Origin: Bacteroidota bacterium
GTDB taxonomy: Bacteria > Bacteroidota > Bacteroidia > Bacteroidales > DYOH01
Direction of reading: 5' to 3'
DNA length: 60,984 bases
Assembly (NCBI GenBank): GCA_020048155.1
Contig: JAIFMY010000061.1
Coordinates: forward strand, 1-60,984
Shown here: in pieces, positions 24,434-55,064 of the stretch
Numbering within the stretch: position 1 is the first letter of the stretch
Layout of the letters: each line of letters opens with the position of its first letter
Position numbers and translations under genes: made by a program
The notes under the pieces: generated by a model
Seen by the model: only the letters and a program-made list of their open reading frames with translations
Databases searched by the model: none
What the model was told of the DNA's origin: nothing

Positions 24434-25588
24434 TTGAAAACATATATCGCAAAAACATTTCATGGCCTGGAAGAGGTTCTTGCCCAAGAACTCGAAATAC
24501 TGGGCGCCAACAATATAAGCTACCTCAGGCGCGCTATCAGGTTCGATGGCGATCAAGCACTGATGTATGCCACTAACCTTTATGTACGCACAGCCCTGCA
24601 AATTCTGGAGGAGTTGGTTTCCTTTGAGGCAGAAACACTGGAAGAAATATATGAACATGCCAGTAAGATTGAATGGAATAGCATAATGAATGTGAAACAA
24701 ACTTTTTCGATTGAAGTAGTGGCACACTCTAAAACTTTTTCACGAAACAATTTGCTTATTTTAAAGTTAAAGGATGCCATAGCCGACTATTTCAGAGAGA
24801 GTACCGGAAAACGACCATCGGTAGACCTAGATAATCCAGACATAAATCTGCACATGTATGTGCACGACAATCAAGTGAGTATACTACTAAATACTAGTGG
24901 TAGTCAGTTATTTAAGCGAAACTACAAAACAGAATCCAATGCAAATGATATAAACGAAGTATTGGCCGCCGGGTTATTGGCACTTAGCGGATGGACTCCA
25001 GACGTACCCTTATACAACCCATATTGCGGAAATGGCACTATTGCCATAGAAGCAGCAATGATAGCAACCAATATGGCGCCGGGTTTGCTGCGCACGCATT
25101 ATGGATTCATGAATTTTGCTAATTACGATGATGATTTGTGGCAAGATACCATCAACCAAGCCATCACGCAGTGCACCAGAAGCGCCATAAACATTGTAGC
25201 CACCGAGTTGCACGAACCCACTCTGCAAATTGCCAAAAACAATGCCCGCAATGCTCGACTTACAGATACAATCATATTTCGTAACGATGATTTTCTGGTA
25301 AATAAGTACCCCCATGAAAAGGGAAGCCTTATCATGGATATGCCCGTAAAACTGCTAGATGATGACCAAGAAGATGTTGAATTTTATACCCAAGTAGGCG
25401 AAACCCTCAAAAAGTTCTATAAAGGTTCAACTGCAAGTATACTCATTTACAGCGAACAAACATCCAAGTACCTAGAACTTAAACCAGCAGCCAGATATTC
25501 GTTATTCAATGGAAACCTGAAGTGTAATTTTCAGAAATACTACTTATATCAGCAATCAAAAAATGAGCAAACAGCCAATTTGTTGTAA
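24434..25588 (+). CDS. THUMP-domain RlmL/RlmKL-like RNA methyltransferase homolog with degenerate catalytic motifs
   Basis: AKTFHGLEEVLAQEL, KLKDAIADYFR, RPSVD, NEVLAAG, LFNGNLKC. Motif I reads NPYCGNGT and motif IV reads DMPVK instead of NPPYG. Confidence 0.85.
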   Translation: MKTYIAKTFHGLEEVLAQELEILGANNISYLRRAIRFDGDQALMYATNLYVRTALQILEELVSFEAETLEEIYEHASKIEWNSIMNVKQTFSIEVVAHSKTFSRNNLLILKLKDAIADYFRESTGKRPSVDLDNPDINLHMYVHDNQVSILLNTSGSQLFKRNYKTESNANDINEVLAAGLLALSGWTPDVPLYNPYCGNGTIAIEAAMIATNMAPGLLRTHYGFMNFANYDDDLWQDTINQAITQCTRSAINIVATELHEPTLQIAKNNARNARLTDTIIFRNDDFLVNKYPHEKGSLIMDMPVKLLDDDQEDVEFYTQVGETLKKFYKGSTASILIYSEQTSKYLELKPAARYSLFNGNLKCNFQKYYLYQQSKNEQTANLL

Positions 25589-25712: not shown

Positions 25713-26264
25713 GTGACACCATTCGACCTACAACAATGGATTGATAAAACCACACAAGGAGAAGTATTTGCAACATACAAAGGCGCAATTACTGCTGATT
25801 TGATTTCAAATATACTGAACCTGATAGAAAATAAGCTTGAAGGAATGAATGAAGACCTGAAAGTGAAAAAAAAAGTGTTCAATGTATTGGTTGAATCATT
25901 ACAAAACTTGTATCATCACATAGATGAACCACCAGCGGAAGAAGAACTAGACAGAAATTTTGCTATTTTCATACTCTCTAAAGCAGATGGTAGATACAAA
26001 ATCTCTACGGGTAATTTTGTAAGACACGATAGAATTAAAATGCTGCGCGACAGAATGGACCAAATCAACTACCTATCTCGTGACGAACTCAAATCGTTGT
26101 ATAAACTTATTCTCAACAACGAAGAGTTCTCTGATAAAGGTGGTGGAGGATTGGGCATGATTGATATTGCTAGAAAAGCCGGGAACAAATTGAATTACAA
26201 TTTTTATCCCTACAACGAAAAATATTCATTCTTTAGTCTTGATGTAATTGTTTCAGATTTTTAA
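25713..26264 (+). CDS. siaB: SiaB-family protein kinase (DUF6272, GHKL-like)
   Basis: KKKVFNVLVESLQNLYHH (N-box-like), ISTGNFV, GGGGLGMIDIARK; directly upstream of a SiaC homolog. Confidence 0.85.
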   Translation: MTPFDLQQWIDKTTQGEVFATYKGAITADLISNILNLIENKLEGMNEDLKVKKKVFNVLVESLQNLYHHIDEPPAEEELDRNFAIFILSKADGRYKISTGNFVRHDRIKMLRDRMDQINYLSRDELKSLYKLILNNEEFSDKGGGGLGMIDIARKAGNKLNYNFYPYNEKYSFFSLDVIVSDF

Positions 26265-26292: not shown

Positions 26293-26676
26293 ATGGAGCC
26301 ACTTTCAATAGAAGGAACGCCCAAAACGCCGACTGTAATTTTGGATGCCGAAAAAGGGAAAATAGAGATAAAAGGTCGTTCTATCCCTGAGAATTCTATC
26401 GAGTTCTATAAACCCGTAGTAGATTGGCTTGAAAAATATTCGAGTGAAGGGCCGAAAAAAACTACAGAAGTCATCATTCAGCTTGAATATTTCAATACAA
26501 GCTCGTCGAAGTGCATTTTAGATGTTTTTAAAAAACTCGAAGGAGTGCATAAAAACGACAATGAGGTGGTGATAAACTGGTATTATGAAGAAGACGACGA
26601 AGATATGCTCGAAGCCGGCGAAGATTATCAGTCGATTCTGAAAATACCTTTCAAAATGATTGAAATAGAAGATTAA
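26293..26676 (+). CDS. siaC: SiaC-family phospho-switch protein (DUF1987)
   Basis: TPKTPTV, KGRSIPEN, LEYFNTSSSK with conserved Thr69, VINWYYEEDDEDMLEAGEDY. Confidence 0.9.
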   Translation: MEPLSIEGTPKTPTVILDAEKGKIEIKGRSIPENSIEFYKPVVDWLEKYSSEGPKKTTEVIIQLEYFNTSSSKCILDVFKKLEGVHKNDNEVVINWYYEEDDEDMLEAGEDYQSILKIPFKMIEIED

Positions 26677-26720
26677 TCGTTTGAGAGATTTCTGCCCGAT
26701 CCGGGCATTTTACAAAACAT

Positions 26721-26766
26721 AAAAGAACCGCTAGAGTTTAGATTATCTGAACTGTACGGTTTTTTT
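26721..26766. terminator. Bidirectional intrinsic terminator between siaC and the ABCG-like gene
   Basis: AAAAGAACCG...AGTTTAGAT / ATCTGAACT...CGGTTTTTTT with A- and T-tracts on either side. Confidence 0.7.
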
Positions 26767-29700
26767 ATTTATCCAATTTTTCCTTCAATCGTATGTTTAT
26801 GCGGTCTATCCCATCAACTATAAGCGAAAGTATTCTAAACTGCAGCATAAAATATAACATGGCAGAAAAAAGCCAAATCACAAGTACATTCACCCAGTAA
26901 GTATGAAGCGCAAACCCAAATATCTTTTTCTGTGGTGCATAGAAATGTGCTTTTATCATGCTATGATCGGGAACTTGAAATACAGGATCTGTTTTTTGGT
27001 ACAAATGCTGCTTGTATTCAATAATACTAATCAACTCATCTGAGTTAGTTACAAAATCATTCAGCCTTTCATTATAATGCTCTCGCTTCAACTTCAGGAA
27101 CTCTTCGCTTCGTACCTTGTCAGATTCTATTTCTGTGATGATTGCATCCTTGCTTTTGCGTGCTAAGTTATTCATATTTATGTAATGCTTTTTCAATAAC
27201 ATAAAATATGCCTCCACACTCTGCAAGGCAGTGCTCGAAACCTTGTCGTGGTAAAGAAGAGATAAATCAAGTTTCTTGCTATAATTCACCTGCAATTCTT
27301 TTTCAAGCTCATTTCTTATAAGTTCCAAATCGGAGATAACCTCTTCTTTTTTATCCGGATTTTTATAATTCCGTTCTATTTCAGTAAGTTTATTCTCAAG
27401 CGTCTTTAGCCAGTAATTCTTTTTATACTCGGCTATGCTCATTTGCTTATCTAGCTCATAAAACTGTTGTTCATAGTCATTAGACATAAACTGATAAACT
27501 GCCAGCGCTTCATATGCCCATCTGGCCGTGATTATTTCACCATAAATGGGAATACTGTTTGGAGATGAAATATTAGGATTTAGTTTATCATACTTTACAA
27601 TAATACCGCTCAGTATTATTTGAGGAATGATGAGAAACGGTATAAGAATATGAATAGTGACCGAGGTTTGAAAAGAATCGGAAATATTGAGCCCCAAAAT
27701 ATTGGCAAATGCCCAAACAGAAAACAGTACCAACCAGTATTCTAAGTACATCCCCTTTATTTCGAGTATCGAGTTGCCTATAATTACAAAAACTAAGGAT
27801 TGAAACGCAGATAAAGTAAAAAGGATAAATATTTTAGACCATAAATAACTTGTACGGCTGAGATGTAGAAATTGCTCTCGCTTCAATATACGCCGGTCCT
27901 TTATGATTTCCTGAGCACTGACTGTAAGTCCAATAAAGAGCGCCACTATAACCGCCATAAACAAATATACCGGAAGATTGCTATTCTCCATGAGGGTATA
28001 GCCATATTGGTTTCCGGCATCTACATTGTAGTACTTGATTATGTATGAAAGAATAAAAGCCAATAAAGGAGATTCTATCAGGTTGATGAATAAATATTGC
28101 TTATTCGCAAGTTTAGCAAGTACATCCCTTGTTACAAAAACCCAAAATTGCCTGATTGCATTAGGAATTTTGAAACTAAGTTCGGGCAAATCTCTAACCA
28201 ATACAGACTTACGCCGCTCATTTCGGGTGTAGTCCAAAAAATACTGATGCCATTCTTTAGGTGAGACTTTCCTGGTTTTGGTAAAATGCCCATACTCATC
28301 TATTACTTTGGCTTCAACTATATTGAAAATTTGTTCAGGGTTGACATTTCCACAGGTATGGCATTCACTTTCACTCCAGTTGGCCTGATGTATTCGGGAT
28401 TTGAAGTAAATAATAGAGTCAACCGGATCGCCATTGTATATCAGAAAACCAGCCTGATCCAGTAGCAGAAGCCTGTCGAACATTTTAAAAATATCGGACG
28501 ATGGCTGATGTATAACCACAAATACCAATTTCCCTTTAAGAGCAAGCTCTTTCAGAAGGTCAAGTATATTCTCAGAATCGCGTGAAGATAGGCCACTTGT
28601 AGGCTCATCCAAAAATAAAACAGCCGGTTCACGAATGAGTTCGAGTGCTATATTTAAACGTTTGCGTTGTCCACCACTAATTTTTTTATTAAGCGGATTG
28701 CCCACTTTCATATCCTTTATTTCATACAATCCCAGGTTTTGAAGTACTTTTACTACAGACCTTAGAATCTGAAAATGAGTATAATTACTAAAACAAAGTT
28801 TGGCATTGTAGTACAAGTTTTCAAAAACAGTGAGGTCTTCAATCAGGAGGTCGTCTTGGGACACATGCCCAATAAGACCTTCTATTTTATGTGGTTCCTT
28901 GTGAATATTCACCCCATTAATGAGCACTTCGCCATGGTTGGGCTTCTCAGAACCATTAAGTACATTGAGCAGAGTAGACTTTCCGGTACCACTTGCGCCC
29001 ATGATTCCAATTAGTTTGCCCGATTTTTCAACAAAAGAGATATTGTGTAAACCAACTTTTCCACCTTTAAACGTATAGTGAATATTGTTGGCCTCGAGTA
29101 CAACCCTTGGTTTGCTGATATCAAGCGAAAAATTGCCAACAATATCGCTGTAGTATATAGGTTTAAGTTGCGGGCTACGAATAGAACTACCACTGGAAAT
29201 AAGATAAACCTTATTATCCTGAAGCAATTGTCCGTTGAGATACAATTCGCTTTCGCTTACAAAGCGCATAAGATAAATACTCGAAATATCAATTTTGAGC
29301 ACCCTAATTTGGCCTTTAAAGCTGTCTACGAAAATACGTTTTACTTTGCGCTGTCCTGTAATATGTTGATTAGAATCTATCACCAATAAGTTTTCCCAAT
29401 CAGGAGTAAAAACAAAATTATCAACCACAAAGGTTTTAATTTGTTCGAAAGTGATGCGATCAATATTGAAAGTATCTGAAACCGTAGTTACAAACTCGTT
29501 TTCTTGTTCAGGTATTTCGCCTACAGTAGTTACAAACTCAATAAGACGCACCAGAACTATAATTTTTTCTTTCTGGGTAAGTTCCTGATTTATGACAGTG
29601 GCAATCATTATCACCTTTACCGAGCTGGCAGCTAAACGTTTGCGTTGTTTAGTCTCAGATCCTTGCCGCTTTTGGTACTGATCGAAAAAGCCATCAAACA

Positions 29701-29845
29701 TGGACAGATAATTCTCAATCAGTTCTTGGTTTAATTGTTGTTTCAAGAAGGAACGAACCACTTCTTTACGCTCATCGGCATTGCTATCCGGCTTGGCCAA
29801 AATAGCAAATAGTTGCATCAAAGCTTTAAGGATACGTTCGCTCAT
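26765..29845 (-). CDS. ABCG/White-type half transporter with N-terminal TerB-like and FHA-like domains and a large periplasmic loop
   Basis: GASGTGKST, ISGGQRKRLNIALEL, LFLDEPTSGL, IHQPSSDIFKMFDRLLLL, CHTCGNVNPEQIF. NBD precedes the TMD. Helical N-terminus ending EQENEFVTTVSDTFNI. Confidence 0.88.
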   Translation of the reverse strand: MSERILKALMQLFAILAKPDSNADERKEVVRSFLKQQLNQELIENYLSMFDGFFDQYQKRQGSETKQRKRLAASSVKVIMIATVINQELTQKEKIIVLVRLIEFVTTVGEIPEQENEFVTTVSDTFNIDRITFEQIKTFVVDNFVFTPDWENLLVIDSNQHITGQRKVKRIFVDSFKGQIRVLKIDISSIYLMRFVSESELYLNGQLLQDNKVYLISSGSSIRSPQLKPIYYSDIVGNFSLDISKPRVVLEANNIHYTFKGGKVGLHNISFVEKSGKLIGIMGASGTGKSTLLNVLNGSEKPNHGEVLINGVNIHKEPHKIEGLIGHVSQDDLLIEDLTVFENLYYNAKLCFSNYTHFQILRSVVKVLQNLGLYEIKDMKVGNPLNKKISGGQRKRLNIALELIREPAVLFLDEPTSGLSSRDSENILDLLKELALKGKLVFVVIHQPSSDIFKMFDRLLLLDQAGFLIYNGDPVDSIIYFKSRIHQANWSESECHTCGNVNPEQIFNIVEAKVIDEYGHFTKTRKVSPKEWHQYFLDYTRNERRKSVLVRDLPELSFKIPNAIRQFWVFVTRDVLAKLANKQYLFINLIESPLLAFILSYIIKYYNVDAGNQYGYTLMENSNLPVYLFMAVIVALFIGLTVSAQEIIKDRRILKREQFLHLSRTSYLWSKIFILFTLSAFQSLVFVIIGNSILEIKGMYLEYWLVLFSVWAFANILGLNISDSFQTSVTIHILIPFLIIPQIILSGIIVKYDKLNPNISSPNSIPIYGEIITARWAYEALAVYQFMSNDYEQQFYELDKQMSIAEYKKNYWLKTLENKLTEIERNYKNPDKKEEVISDLELIRNELEKELQVNYSKKLDLSLLYHDKVSSTALQSVEAYFMLLKKHYINMNNLARKSKDAIITEIESDKVRSEEFLKLKREHYNERLNDFVTNSDELISIIEYKQHLYQKTDPVFQVPDHSMIKAHFYAPQKKIFGFALHTYWVNVLVIWLFSAMLYFMLQFRILSLIVDGIDRINIRLKEKLDK

Positions 29846-29883
29846 GAAAAAACCTTATATTTTTAAAATCAGAATGATAGACG

Positions 29884-30324
29884 CTATTTAGAGAACCCAA
29901 TTTGCAAGATTGCGAAGCCTGAAGGCGGTGCGGTAGGTGCCAGATATGCTTCAATAATGCAATCTACTGTAGAGTTAAATTTAAAATCCCAATACGGTGC
30001 ATTGTTGTAACCTCTGTTTGAAAAAAGTTCATTTCGTTCGCGGTCGTAAATTGCAAAAATAAGTTGTCCTTCTTGGCTTCCTGAACAGGCAGTGATACGG
30101 TAAATACTTCCTCCATAGAAGGTAGCTCTGAACTCTGCGACTTCCTCAGCGTTTATAAGCGCTCTGTATTGTTGTCCGTCAGACACAAAGGGTGGATTCA
30201 TGTATTTATCACATACTGCAGTGGTAACTTCTTCTTGTGCATTTACAAAGAATGATTGCAGAAGAAATGCAAAAAAGAAAGTTAATTTAAGATATGTTTT
30301 ATTCATTTTCTTGAACTTTATCAT
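29884..30324 (-). CDS. Small secreted hypothetical protein (beta-rich, 3 Cys)
   Basis: Signal peptide ...FFVNA-QEE; ATGA overlap with the upstream lipoprotein gene; no family recognised. Confidence 0.75.
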   Translation of the reverse strand: MIKFKKMNKTYLKLTFFFAFLLQSFFVNAQEEVTTAVCDKYMNPPFVSDGQQYRALINAEEVAEFRATFYGGSIYRITACSGSQEGQLIFAIYDRERNELFSNRGYNNAPYWDFKFNSTVDCIIEAYLAPTAPPSGFAILQIGFSK

Positions 30325-31232
30325 TGAACAATACTATTGCGAATGGCTTCCACTTGCTCGGTAATCAGGTTAAGTTGTACATCCTGAATGATGGTTTTAG
30401 TTGTGCTGTTTATGACCGTCAGTTTTTTGTCGGCATAGGTTGTAGGCGGTACATATTTATATTCTATAGTAATACCATCAAATACGGTAGCCAGATCTAC
30501 CAGTTGCTCCAGCAAATGATCAAACTCTTCAGATTGCTTTCCGTAGTATGGCCTAAGCAGCTCTATCAGGTTGTCGAGTGGATATTTTTGTTCGCCTATT
30601 CTATTTATAATTTCCTGACTTTTATTTGTTTGCGCTAGTTGCGAAAGGAAATAAAGACTTTCGACCCAACCGCCCGTGAGAATAATGATACCTATTTCGT
30701 TCCTTTCATTATCCATCAGGTAAGCATCTGCATTCTTATACATGGAAGAAACTATTTGCATAATTGAATCCTTGTTGCTTTTATTCGATTCAAAACGCTC
30801 CAAGAGTTTTTCATCAATGGAACTCATAATACCAAGTTCTTTCGACATGATCTTCACCACTCCAAAATAAACTGCGGCATCGGGCAATTGGTCGTACATA
30901 TTCAAATACCCCAGGTTTGCACCATATACACCCAAATTTAGGGCTTGCTTGAATGCAGTGGTGTACCTAGACGTACGCTCAACCGGGTTGAGTAGTTCTT
31001 TATTGTAAGGTATACCCGTTTCTTTGACCAACGAAGCCACTTGTAGAGGCGACGGAATACTAAAAAGCCTATCGTTGAGCTTTATAAGCCCACCGGTAGA
31101 CTGAAATTCCTCATCCAGATTATTAGTCTGGTTGTTCTTTGGGGGGGTATCATTACATCCAATACCAATAATCATCATCAATGAAGCAATAAATGGTAAA
31201 AGTATGTTACTTAAAGTCAGTTTTTTAGTCAT
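30321..31232 (-). CDS. Hypothetical alpha-helical lipoprotein
   Basis: Lipobox IGIG-C; mature region SIPSPLQV...QALNLGVYGANLGY...GGWVESLY...RIGEQK. Start set at ATG 31232 because the GTG at 31289 coincides with a -7 box. Confidence 0.78.
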   Translation of the reverse strand: MTKKLTLSNILLPFIASLMMIIGIGCNDTPPKNNQTNNLDEEFQSTGGLIKLNDRLFSIPSPLQVASLVKETGIPYNKELLNPVERTSRYTTAFKQALNLGVYGANLGYLNMYDQLPDAAVYFGVVKIMSKELGIMSSIDEKLLERFESNKSNKDSIMQIVSSMYKNADAYLMDNERNEIGIIILTGGWVESLYFLSQLAQTNKSQEIINRIGEQKYPLDNLIELLRPYYGKQSEEFDHLLEQLVDLATVFDGITIEYKYVPPTTYADKKLTVINSTTKTIIQDVQLNLITEQVEAIRNSIVQ

Positions 31233-31288
31233 AGCATAAAGCGTTTTTAACTCTTGTCGCATTTTTATACTGAACAAATATTTGGCCA

Positions 31289-31296
31289 CAAATTTA
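31289..31296 (-). promoter_or_regulatory. -7 box for the lipoprotein/secreted protein/ABCG operon
   Basis: Minus strand TAAATTTG. Confidence 0.5.
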
Positions 31297-54631: not shown

Positions 54632-55006
54632 CTAAATTATATTGTGAATCATTTTGATAGGCAATTTGGTAATTTTCTGAATGATTTCAGCATATTCCAA
54701 AATGTCATCATCGTCGTAATACCAATTTATTTCAACGTTATCATTTATATCATACAATTCCCGTATTTTCTTCACCATAGTAAAAATCCATTTCGAAGAA
54801 CTGGTGTTGAAATAATCCATCTTGATATTTACAACAGTCTTAGGGCACATCTGTTTCGCATACAAATCAATCCACTGAATCAAAGGCTCGTAGAATGCTG
54901 GAGCGTTCTCAACAATTGACCTTCCGCTAATTTCCAACATCCCTTCCTGTGCATCAAAATTTACAGAGGGCATTTTTTTATTTCCTTTGATAACAATATT
55001 TTCCAT
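54632..55006 (-). CDS. siaC: Second SiaC-family protein (DUF1987), orphan
   Basis: PSVNFD, SGRSIVEN, DYFNTSSSK (Thr68), VEINWYYDDDDILEYAE. Confidence 0.88.
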   Translation of the reverse strand: MENIVIKGNKKMPSVNFDAQEGMLEISGRSIVENAPAFYEPLIQWIDLYAKQMCPKTVVNIKMDYFNTSSSKWIFTMVKKIRELYDINDNVEINWYYDDDDILEYAEIIQKITKLPIKMIHNII

Positions 55007-55064
55007 ATATATATCTGCAAAAATTTCTAAATCAGAAAACGAAAACATCGCTTTATTCGTTCTT

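Follow-up and report, generated by a model that had tools for sequence, protein, structure and literature searches.

A putative ABCG-like export module linked to a SiaB/SiaC partner switch in Bacteroidota

To our knowledge, the eukaryotic ABCG transporters are well studied while few bacterial relatives of them have been characterised, and the sole known role of SiaC-type partner switches is control of a diguanylate cyclase. Among the described systems, Rv1747 of Mycobacterium tuberculosis is an exporter in which two FHA domains precede a nucleotide-binding domain (NBD) and a transmembrane domain (TMD) and which is regulated by the kinase PknF (PMC3138270, PMC5549992). A SiaABCD partner switch has been described in Pseudomonas aeruginosa (PMC7647112, PMC8457831; PDB 6kko, 6k4f, 7e6g). 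Here we analyse a locus on contig JAIFMY010000061.1 (assembly GCA_020048155.1) of a Bacteroidota bacterium of the lineage DYOH01; the whole stretch of 60,984 nucleotides is called the window below. The locus encodes a lipoprotein (L), a small secreted protein (S) and a transporter (T), and faces convergent siaC and siaB-like genes (Table 1). An earlier reading made from the letters alone (the sequence-only reading) had proposed L, S and T as an export trio and filed SiaB/SiaC as a separate orphan finding. On balance, we lean modestly towards a reading in which the locus is a regulated Bacteroidota envelope export module consisting of an ABCG-like exporter, its partners L and S, and a SiaB/SiaC switch. 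The observations behind it are the architecture of T, its intact ATPase motifs and fold relations, the linkage of the genes in two different orders, and their co-occurrence across genomes.

In T, the NBD precedes the TMD within a single polypeptide, as seen from the Pfam order, ABC_tran (PF00005) at residues 266-417 (4e-31) followed by ABC2_membrane (PF01061) at residues 565-758 (4.9e-17), and from the AlphaFold2 (AF2) model. The protein carries ISGGQRKR, IHQPSSDIF..FDRLLLL, CHTC and NPEQIF, and the Walker A Lys, Q-loop Gln, SGGQ, Walker B Asp-Glu and H-loop His are invariant in 87 of 87 T-family sequences. By these motifs, T looks like a catalytically competent NBD-TMD half transporter. Its best NCBIfam model is TIGR00955 (White/ABCG pigment permease; 5.7e-72, residues 256-823). 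Given that the score of 243.2 bits falls far short of the curated cut-off of 736.35, T is a relative of the ABCG (White) subfamily and not a member by this criterion. The best PDB sequence matches were Pdr5, ABCG2, Cdr1, ABCG5/8 and ABCG1. A Foldseek search of the PDB with the full-length AF2 model (mean predicted local distance difference test score, pLDDT, 73.5) returned eukaryotic ABCG-family proteins, including PDR-type ones, in all of the top 50 positions (E 3e-22 to 7e-19, probability 1.0).

Six transmembrane (TM) helices were found, with TM1-TM5 at about residues 584-750 and TM6 at 982-1002 by both hydropathy and AF2. An insert of about 220 amino acids (~755-981) separates TM5 from TM6 and consists of four long helices (790-826, 830-853, 871-908 and 910-933 in the AF2 model) and two beta hairpins, with a conserved HFYAPxK motif directly before TM6. 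Given this position and the ABCG topology, the insert would be extracytoplasmic and would face the periplasm. Thus, the ABCG-like NBD-TMD transporter, the ABCG-type motifs with their CHTC, and the large helical extracytoplasmic segment before the last TM helix that the sequence-only reading had proposed all held up. The two invariant cysteines of the CxxC lie directly N-terminal to GNVNPEQIF. Within NPEQIF (residues 502-507), N502 is kept in 77/87 and P503 in 73/87 sequences, and Gln replaces the Asp of the ABCG motif NPxDF, a match judged by sequence position. The monomer model falls below pLDDT 50 at residues 488-494 and 504-533, around the CxxC (window 28352-28363). With its invariant CxxC beside an NPxDF-like motif, T may have a site for metal binding or redox chemistry at the subunit interface.

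Analogy with ABCG proteins and with Rv1747 (PMC3138270) suggests a hydrophobic or envelope component as the substrate of T. No recognisable substrate-related genes were found in the T locus. This absence, together with the long conserved helical insert, the conserved motif next to TM6 and the dedicated exported partners, would also fit a mechanotransducer of the FtsEX/MacB kind, in which ATP hydrolysis moves the bundle to switch L and S (for example as envelope remodelling factors). Type VII ABC proteins, to which FtsEX and MacB belong, possess four TM helices and a periplasmic domain between TM1 and TM2. By contrast, the six TM helices of T adopt the ABC-2/ABCG fold seen in true transporters and floppases, the Pfam search of T listed ABC2_membrane and no FtsX match, and profile searches found no enzyme signature in L or S. 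Membership of type VII was rejected on this topology (six TM helices, insert between TM5 and TM6), and we regard mechanotransduction as improbable.

To place T in its genomic context, we drew on relatives, which contributed 12 loci, and on GTDB species genomes, which contributed a further 80. Their open reading frames (ORFs) were searched with iterated hidden Markov models, and neighbours were counted wherever both flanks of T reached 1.4 kb or more (71 loci). All T loci with a recorded lineage came from Bacteroidota (Bacteroidales, Marinilabiliales, Flavobacteriales, Cytophagales and Sphingobacteriales). L stood beside T at 45/71 loci, S at 37/71, SiaC at 44/71 and SiaB-like at 40/71; L or SiaC was present at 63/71, and all four at 23/71. 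Two main gene orders were seen. The first, L>S>T><siaC<siaB, is that of the window. In the second, all genes lie on one strand as (PP2C) cheR>cheB>PP2C>PP2C>siaB>siaC>T>L>S, an order also found on contig C191 of the same genome. In a third arrangement, L alone lies directly 5' of T. A maximum-likelihood tree of 86 T proteins placed the arrangements in separate well-supported clades, with 26 label changes against 53 in shuffles. Because the two independent gene orders, each of which unites all five families, occupy separate T clades, the association appears to be old and to have survived rearrangement. In the clade containing the T of the window, convergent SiaC/SiaB was found at ~32/46 loci and L(S) at ~23/46.

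Gene content follows the same pattern. Among 31 related genomes, 17 with T and 14 without, L was present in 17/17 genomes with T and 1/14 without it (Fisher p 7e-8), S in 16/17 and 0/14 (6e-8), and SiaC in 14/17 and 0/14 (3e-6), p-values that ignore phylogeny. T occurs in 17 of these 31 relatives and, where only other families of the order are counted, in 16 of the 27 genomes sampled.

At the 12 loci most closely orthologous to that of the window, SiaC/SiaB adjoins T in 10 cases and L-S in seven, and SiaB/SiaC is thus the neighbour that accompanies this orthologue group most persistently, rather than the unconnected orphan it had been taken for. These counts bear directly on the possibility that L, S and T are a self-contained export trio in which lipid-like cargo moves from the insert to L and S, with SiaB/SiaC unrelated. 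Such a trio accounts for the tight operon structure, the L>S>T order kept in orthologues, the confinement of L and S to genomes with T, and the ABCG fold. By contrast, it leaves aside the strongest linkage signal, namely the closer attachment of SiaC/SiaB than of L-S to T in the orthologous loci, the sister clade in which SiaC/SiaB is co-directional and directly upstream of T, and the finding that, in the sampled order, SiaC too occurs only where T does. We consider the stand-alone trio unlikely. What stands of the original trio is a conserved ABCG-like unit with L and S; as an export system it was incomplete, and its composition is not obligatory. Similarly, the claim that L and S go with T is supported by adjacency and by genome content, while L-S is not obligatory at a T locus, with about half of the window clade being free of it.

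The siaC product matched PF09345 (4.3e-45, 152.7 bits against a cut-off of 24.5) and, over its full length, P. aeruginosa SiaC (6kko_C, 6k4f; 1.7e-21). Its Thr69 aligns with Thr68 (FNT69SS versus LNT68SS), the phospho-acceptor of P. aeruginosa SiaC (PMC7647112), and the YFNT(S/A)S motif recurs in 53/54 T-linked SiaC proteins. The siaB-like product matched PF19788 (DUF6272; 2.1e-39) and, full length, chain A of 6kko (9.2e-14 over residues 4-179). We take this chain to be P. aeruginosa SiaB; its PDB record reads 'Putative serine phosphatase'. Judged by these matches, the 183-residue protein is a SiaB-type putative kinase. SpoIIE/PP2C domains were found in the 620-aa neighbours within the co-directional operons, and there was no SiaA-type PP2C gene beside the T locus of the window. 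A search of the genome containing the window (91% complete) for GGDEF (PF00990) gave 0 matches, with control genomes scoring as expected. Given that this genome is without a GGDEF domain, a SiaD-type output of SiaC signalling is unavailable to it and was rejected. Some of its SiaC and SiaB-like genes are apparently fused, as in a 500-aa ORF at C136:50331-51830, and the window holds a second SiaC-family gene (54632-55048, minus strand) without an adjoining T, L or S.

The copy numbers in this genome, 13 SiaC against only four T, raise the possibility that signalling runs in the reverse direction, with T sensing the envelope state through its head and insert and feeding a SiaB/SiaC switch that acts on other targets. 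TerB-family domains, which resemble the N-terminal part of T (see below), are linked to membrane stress, and the lack of a PP2C input beside the window locus is also compatible with a sensing role. However, the co-directional operons put sensors, CheR/CheB and PP2C upstream and T-L-S last, which is the usual order from input to output, and the invariance of all ATPase motifs argues for a working motor. Such reversed signalling is therefore very unlikely in our judgement. The stand-alone trio, the mechanotransducer and T as a sensor are all less favoured than the regulated export module because each fits gene order, fold or linkage less well.

The N-terminal head of T was modelled separately (residues 1-250, alignment of 48 sequences; pLDDT 90, predicted TM score 0.86) and consists of a seven-helix bundle (1-141) and a seven-stranded beta domain (153-231). 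The sequence-only reading had called the first part TerB-like. T itself did not reach the gathering threshold of PF05099 (19.0 bits against 24.4, residues 8-137); the family is recorded for 42/120 listed full-length T homologues, and Foldseek aligned the helical head with PG1108 (2h5n; TM-score 0.54-0.58 over 138 columns), which we take to be TerB-like. The TerB relation is thus supported at the level of family and fold, with T itself below the Pfam cut-off.

The beta domain had been described as FHA-like, and this holds at the level of fold. Nearly all top Foldseek matches were FHA domains (probability 0.9-1.0, with E only 0.017-0.3 and target TM-score 0.4-0.47), among them those of MEK1, Rad53 FHA1, KIF1C, CEP170, RNF8, TIFA and DgcB, with PDB entries 5yyx, 6c4u, 2g1l, 4jon and 6hc0 among the matches, and the domain, with seven strands in about 80 residues, is a reduced version of the fold. 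It does not hold for the Pfam threshold or for the phosphothreonine (pThr)-binding residues. The sole match of the domain's sequence profile was the MEK1 FHA (E 0.24), over the '...LNGxxL....YxL..Gs.I' half. Pfam FHA (PF00498) had no match in T; it was the family matched by most T members, yet in 4/31 only, all sub-threshold (best E 0.028). We take the canonical pThr-binding positions to be Gly-Arg, Ser-x-x-His and the Asn of S/T-x-N-G. Across the 87 T sequences there was no conserved Arg after G178, no Ser-x-x-His and no first Asn; all that persists is the second, structural 'LNG' turn (N204 in 79/87). The domain is probably FHA-shaped but phospho-blind, and a canonical FHA reading of phospho-SiaC was rejected. 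The analogy with Rv1747 drawn by the sequence-only reading is thereby confined to architecture and does not extend to mechanism.

We propose the following scheme for the regulated export module. T would act as a dimer, an ATP-driven exporter or floppase of the ABCG-like kind (type V, NBD before TMD), and a helical bundle of ~220 amino acids would reach from each subunit into the periplasm. L and S, which would be co-transcribed 5' of T, would serve as extracytoplasmic partners, either accepting or handling exported material or docking on the insert. The TerB-like and pseudo-FHA head, both parts of which resemble domains for protein interaction, would likely be a docking platform for the adjacent SiaC phosphoprotein, whose phosphorylation at Thr69 would be set by the SiaB-like kinase and, in related loci, also by PP2C and CheR/CheB-linked sensors. 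The partner switch would then turn transport on or off, with T in the place held by SiaD in Pseudomonas. A more specific version is tentative, and as worded we hold it to be doubtful: one phosphorylation state of SiaC would dock on the head and license export, and the bundle would then pass cargo to L-S pairs, of which the cell has several. If correct, this version would be the first case of a partner switch with a transporter as its output, and T would be a bacterial relative of ABCG proteins equipped with a periplasmic relay.

That T physically touches L, S and SiaC, and which way control runs, are inferences. Several observations weigh against the regulated export module. The absence of pThr-binding residues makes a simple pThr-FHA mechanism unlikely. 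Neither L nor S has a recognisable fold or family. None of the four neighbours was found at 8/71 T loci. Within the genome containing the window, which has 13 SiaC and eight SiaB-like genes, only two of the 13 SiaC genes and two of the seven L-S pairs lie beside T. Given that most members of both families are apart from T, these families must also have other roles or act in trans. The correlation of T, L, S and SiaC across genomes may stem partly from shared ancestry or from a deep split within the order. Finally, T is rare and patchy at the level of the phylum, being found in 9/301 genomes of an even phylum sample.

L and S are both exported proteins of unnamed families. The first gene had been read as a lipoprotein gene and the second as encoding a 3-Cys secreted protein, and both assignments were confirmed: the lipobox Cys is conserved in at least 90% of the L family, and S has a signal peptide (...VNA/QEE) and Cys38, Cys80 and Cys122. 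Conserved motifs of L are IPSPxE, LNLGVYGADLGY and LTGGWxE. Searches of Pfam, NCBIfam and PDB sequence profiles gave no match for L and no credible one for S; a match of S to complex-I subunit B13 (E 0.0036, 64 residues only) was treated as chance. A relation of L to the insert of T was likewise rejected (hhalign probability 0.2). More than 1100 homologues of L and 384 of S were found in databases; every one comes from Bacteroidota and is annotated as 'hypothetical protein'. In the genome containing the window, S directly follows L in 7/7 cases, and L-S is a free-standing cassette and not an obligatory part of a T locus. Five such cassettes lie away from T on contigs C26, C244, C136 (34.7 kb), C197 and C156, and a lone L is found on contig C67.

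Turning to the locus itself, L, S and T form a three-gene set on the minus strand, in which ATGA combines the stop codon of L with the start of S (4-nt overlap) and 38 nt separate S from T by ORF coordinates, in agreement with the sequence-only reading. A bidirectional terminator after T had also been proposed, and this stood: two hairpins of -22 and -28.5 kcal/mol (z -3.0 and -4.6) lie between T and siaC, and the first (26719-26768), with an A-tract on its 5' side and a U-tract on its 3' side, fits such a terminator. A scan for sigma-70 promoters and terminators gave chance-level counts and overlooked the real T/siaC hairpins. The proposal of a single -7 box before L fared less well. The box TAAATTTG is present and is the sole copy in the intergenic region 5' of L; the motif TANNTTTG has 94 matches in the whole AT-rich window against 80 +/- 9 expected, with five further copies within the coding sequence of the operon. 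Because this frequency is near chance, the box is compatible with a promoter but is no evidence for one, and it was rejected as proof of a single promoter. Since the box overlaps the GTG that opens the 322-aa L ORF, the real start of L is probably ATG 31232 (MTKKLTLS...IGIGC) or 31262 rather than GTG 31289.

Table 1. Features of the locus, with positions in the window
Feature	Position	Strand	Description and basis
siaB-like	25713-26264	plus	183 aa, putative SiaB-like kinase (DUF6272)
siaC	26293-26676	plus	127 aa, SiaC-family phosphoprotein, YFNT69SSS; convergent with T
Two hairpins, T/siaC convergent gap	26693-26768		26719-26768 (A/U tracts); 26693-26707 GCCCGGATCGGGC
T	26765-29845	minus	1026-aa ABCG-like half transporter: TerB-like, FHA-like, NBD, CxxC, TMD with insert
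T, TM6 and C-terminal cytoplasmic helix (residues 978-1026)	26768-26914	minus	hydropathy, AF2
T, extracytoplasmic insert (residues 755-975; predicted)	26921-27583	minus	hydropathy, AF2, conservation
T, connecting helix and TM1-TM5 (residues 563-750)	27596-28159	minus	PF01061 4.9e-17, hydropathy, AF2
T, CxxC and GNVNPEQIF (residues 495-507)	28325-28363	minus	C495 and C498 in 87/87
T, NBD (residues 249-483)	28397-29101	minus	ABC ATPase with all catalytic motifs; PF00005 4e-31
T, FHA-shaped beta domain (residues 150-240)	29126-29398	minus	seven strands; Foldseek, weak profile match
T, TerB-like helical head (residues 1-141)	29423-29845	minus	PF05099 1.8e-3 (below cut-off), AF2, Foldseek
S	29884-30324	minus	146 aa, unnamed family; ORF call
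L (longest ORF)	30321-31289	minus	322 aa, opens at GTG 31289; ORF call
L from ATG 31232	30321-31232	minus	lipoprotein of ~303 aa, lipobox ...IGIGC, Cys24; unnamed family
-7 box TAAATTTG, Bacteroidota-type	31289-31296	minus	read from sequence, 5' of L

Four T copies are present in the genome containing the window (C111, a tandem pair on C136, and C191). The tandem pair (C136 84192-91680, minus strand) consists of two full-length paralogues directly after one L, and neither S nor SiaC accompanies them. All ATPase motifs are intact in both, and the arrangement suggests, by analogy with ABCG5/G8, a heterodimeric transporter. In other loci (L019, L020, L022, L025, L027, L028, L033, L034 and L042), a conserved hpt>stas> pair precedes T and there is no L-S. 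These come from metagenome-assembled genomes labelled Rikenella/Rikenellaceae or unclassified Bacteroidales/Bacteroidia, usually with a divergent gene for a protein of ~865 aa and, in some, a further STAS gene downstream; they point to another partner-switch layer. In three loci of Marinilabiliaceae (L029, L072 and L080, including Carboxylicivirga marina), S lies directly upstream of T and L is missing, with a divergent gene for 713-759 aa in its place. Beside siaB, the window also has a gene for a THUMP-domain methyltransferase (24434-25588, plus strand) that is syntenic in 17 loci, and in loci with longer flanks a gene for an S41 peptidase usually lies further on. The methyltransferase and peptidase appear to reflect local synteny at the level of the order rather than membership of the module. 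A PADLOC search with the five proteins gave generic ATPase-domain matches for T only and none for L, S, SiaB or SiaC, and a known anti-phage defence system was rejected on that result.

The T-L-S-SiaB/SiaC set is a real, widely conserved and unstudied gene set of Bacteroidota. Full-text literature searches turned up no description of it, in line with the earlier statement that no functional account of the trio was known, and no paper was found on DUF1987 with an ABC transporter, on DUF6272, on SiaC in Bacteroidetes, or on TerB/FHA ABC transporters in Bacteroidetes. The T family has thousands of database homologues in Bacteroidota, with several paralogues per genome, and joins ABCG-type transport to a SiaC switch while adding a periplasm-facing helical domain and two unnamed exported families. 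If the regulated export module is correct, it would represent a new output class for Ser/Thr partner switches and a new mode of regulation of ABC exporters. It would also add a new route for envelope export in Bacteroidota, where outer-membrane biogenesis and the traffic of lipids or lipoproteins are incompletely understood, and would provide a function for the many SiaC paralogues in genomes without cyclic di-GMP synthesis.

Compared with known systems, T shares with the eukaryotic ABCG proteins (ABCG2, ABCG5/G8, ABCG1, plant ABCG25/16 and the PDR-type Pdr5/Cdr1) the NBD-before-TMD order, the ABC-2/type V six-TM fold, the largest external loop between TM5 and TM6, and the IHQPS H-loop region. 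Unlike them, it has a head of TerB-like and pseudo-FHA domains, contains an invariant CxxC, reads NPEQIF in place of NPxDF, carries a helical insert of ~220 amino acids where ABCG has a short loop, and is a bacterial protein whose linked genes encode a lipoprotein, a secreted protein and a partner switch. Like the type VII systems MacAB, LolCDE and FtsEX, it is an ABC engine of the inner membrane that combines a large periplasmic domain with exported partners, while its six TM helices are of ABC-2 type and its insert lies between TM5 and TM6.

Compared by description, Rv1747 resembles T in being a bacterial NBD-TMD exporter with an N-terminal FHA-type module and adjoining genes for Ser/Thr phosphorylation. 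By contrast, the two FHA domains of Rv1747 are canonical pThr binders and its kinase is of the Hanks type, whereas T has one degenerate FHA-shaped domain with a TerB-like one, and its locus has a GHKL-type SiaB putative kinase that would act on a separate phosphoprotein. Finally, the locus shares with SiaABCD full-length homologues of SiaB and SiaC, the conserved acceptor Thr and, in the co-directional operons, PP2C. Unlike SiaABCD, it has no SiaA in the locus and no SiaD, in a genome free of GGDEF, and an ABC transporter stands at the output position.

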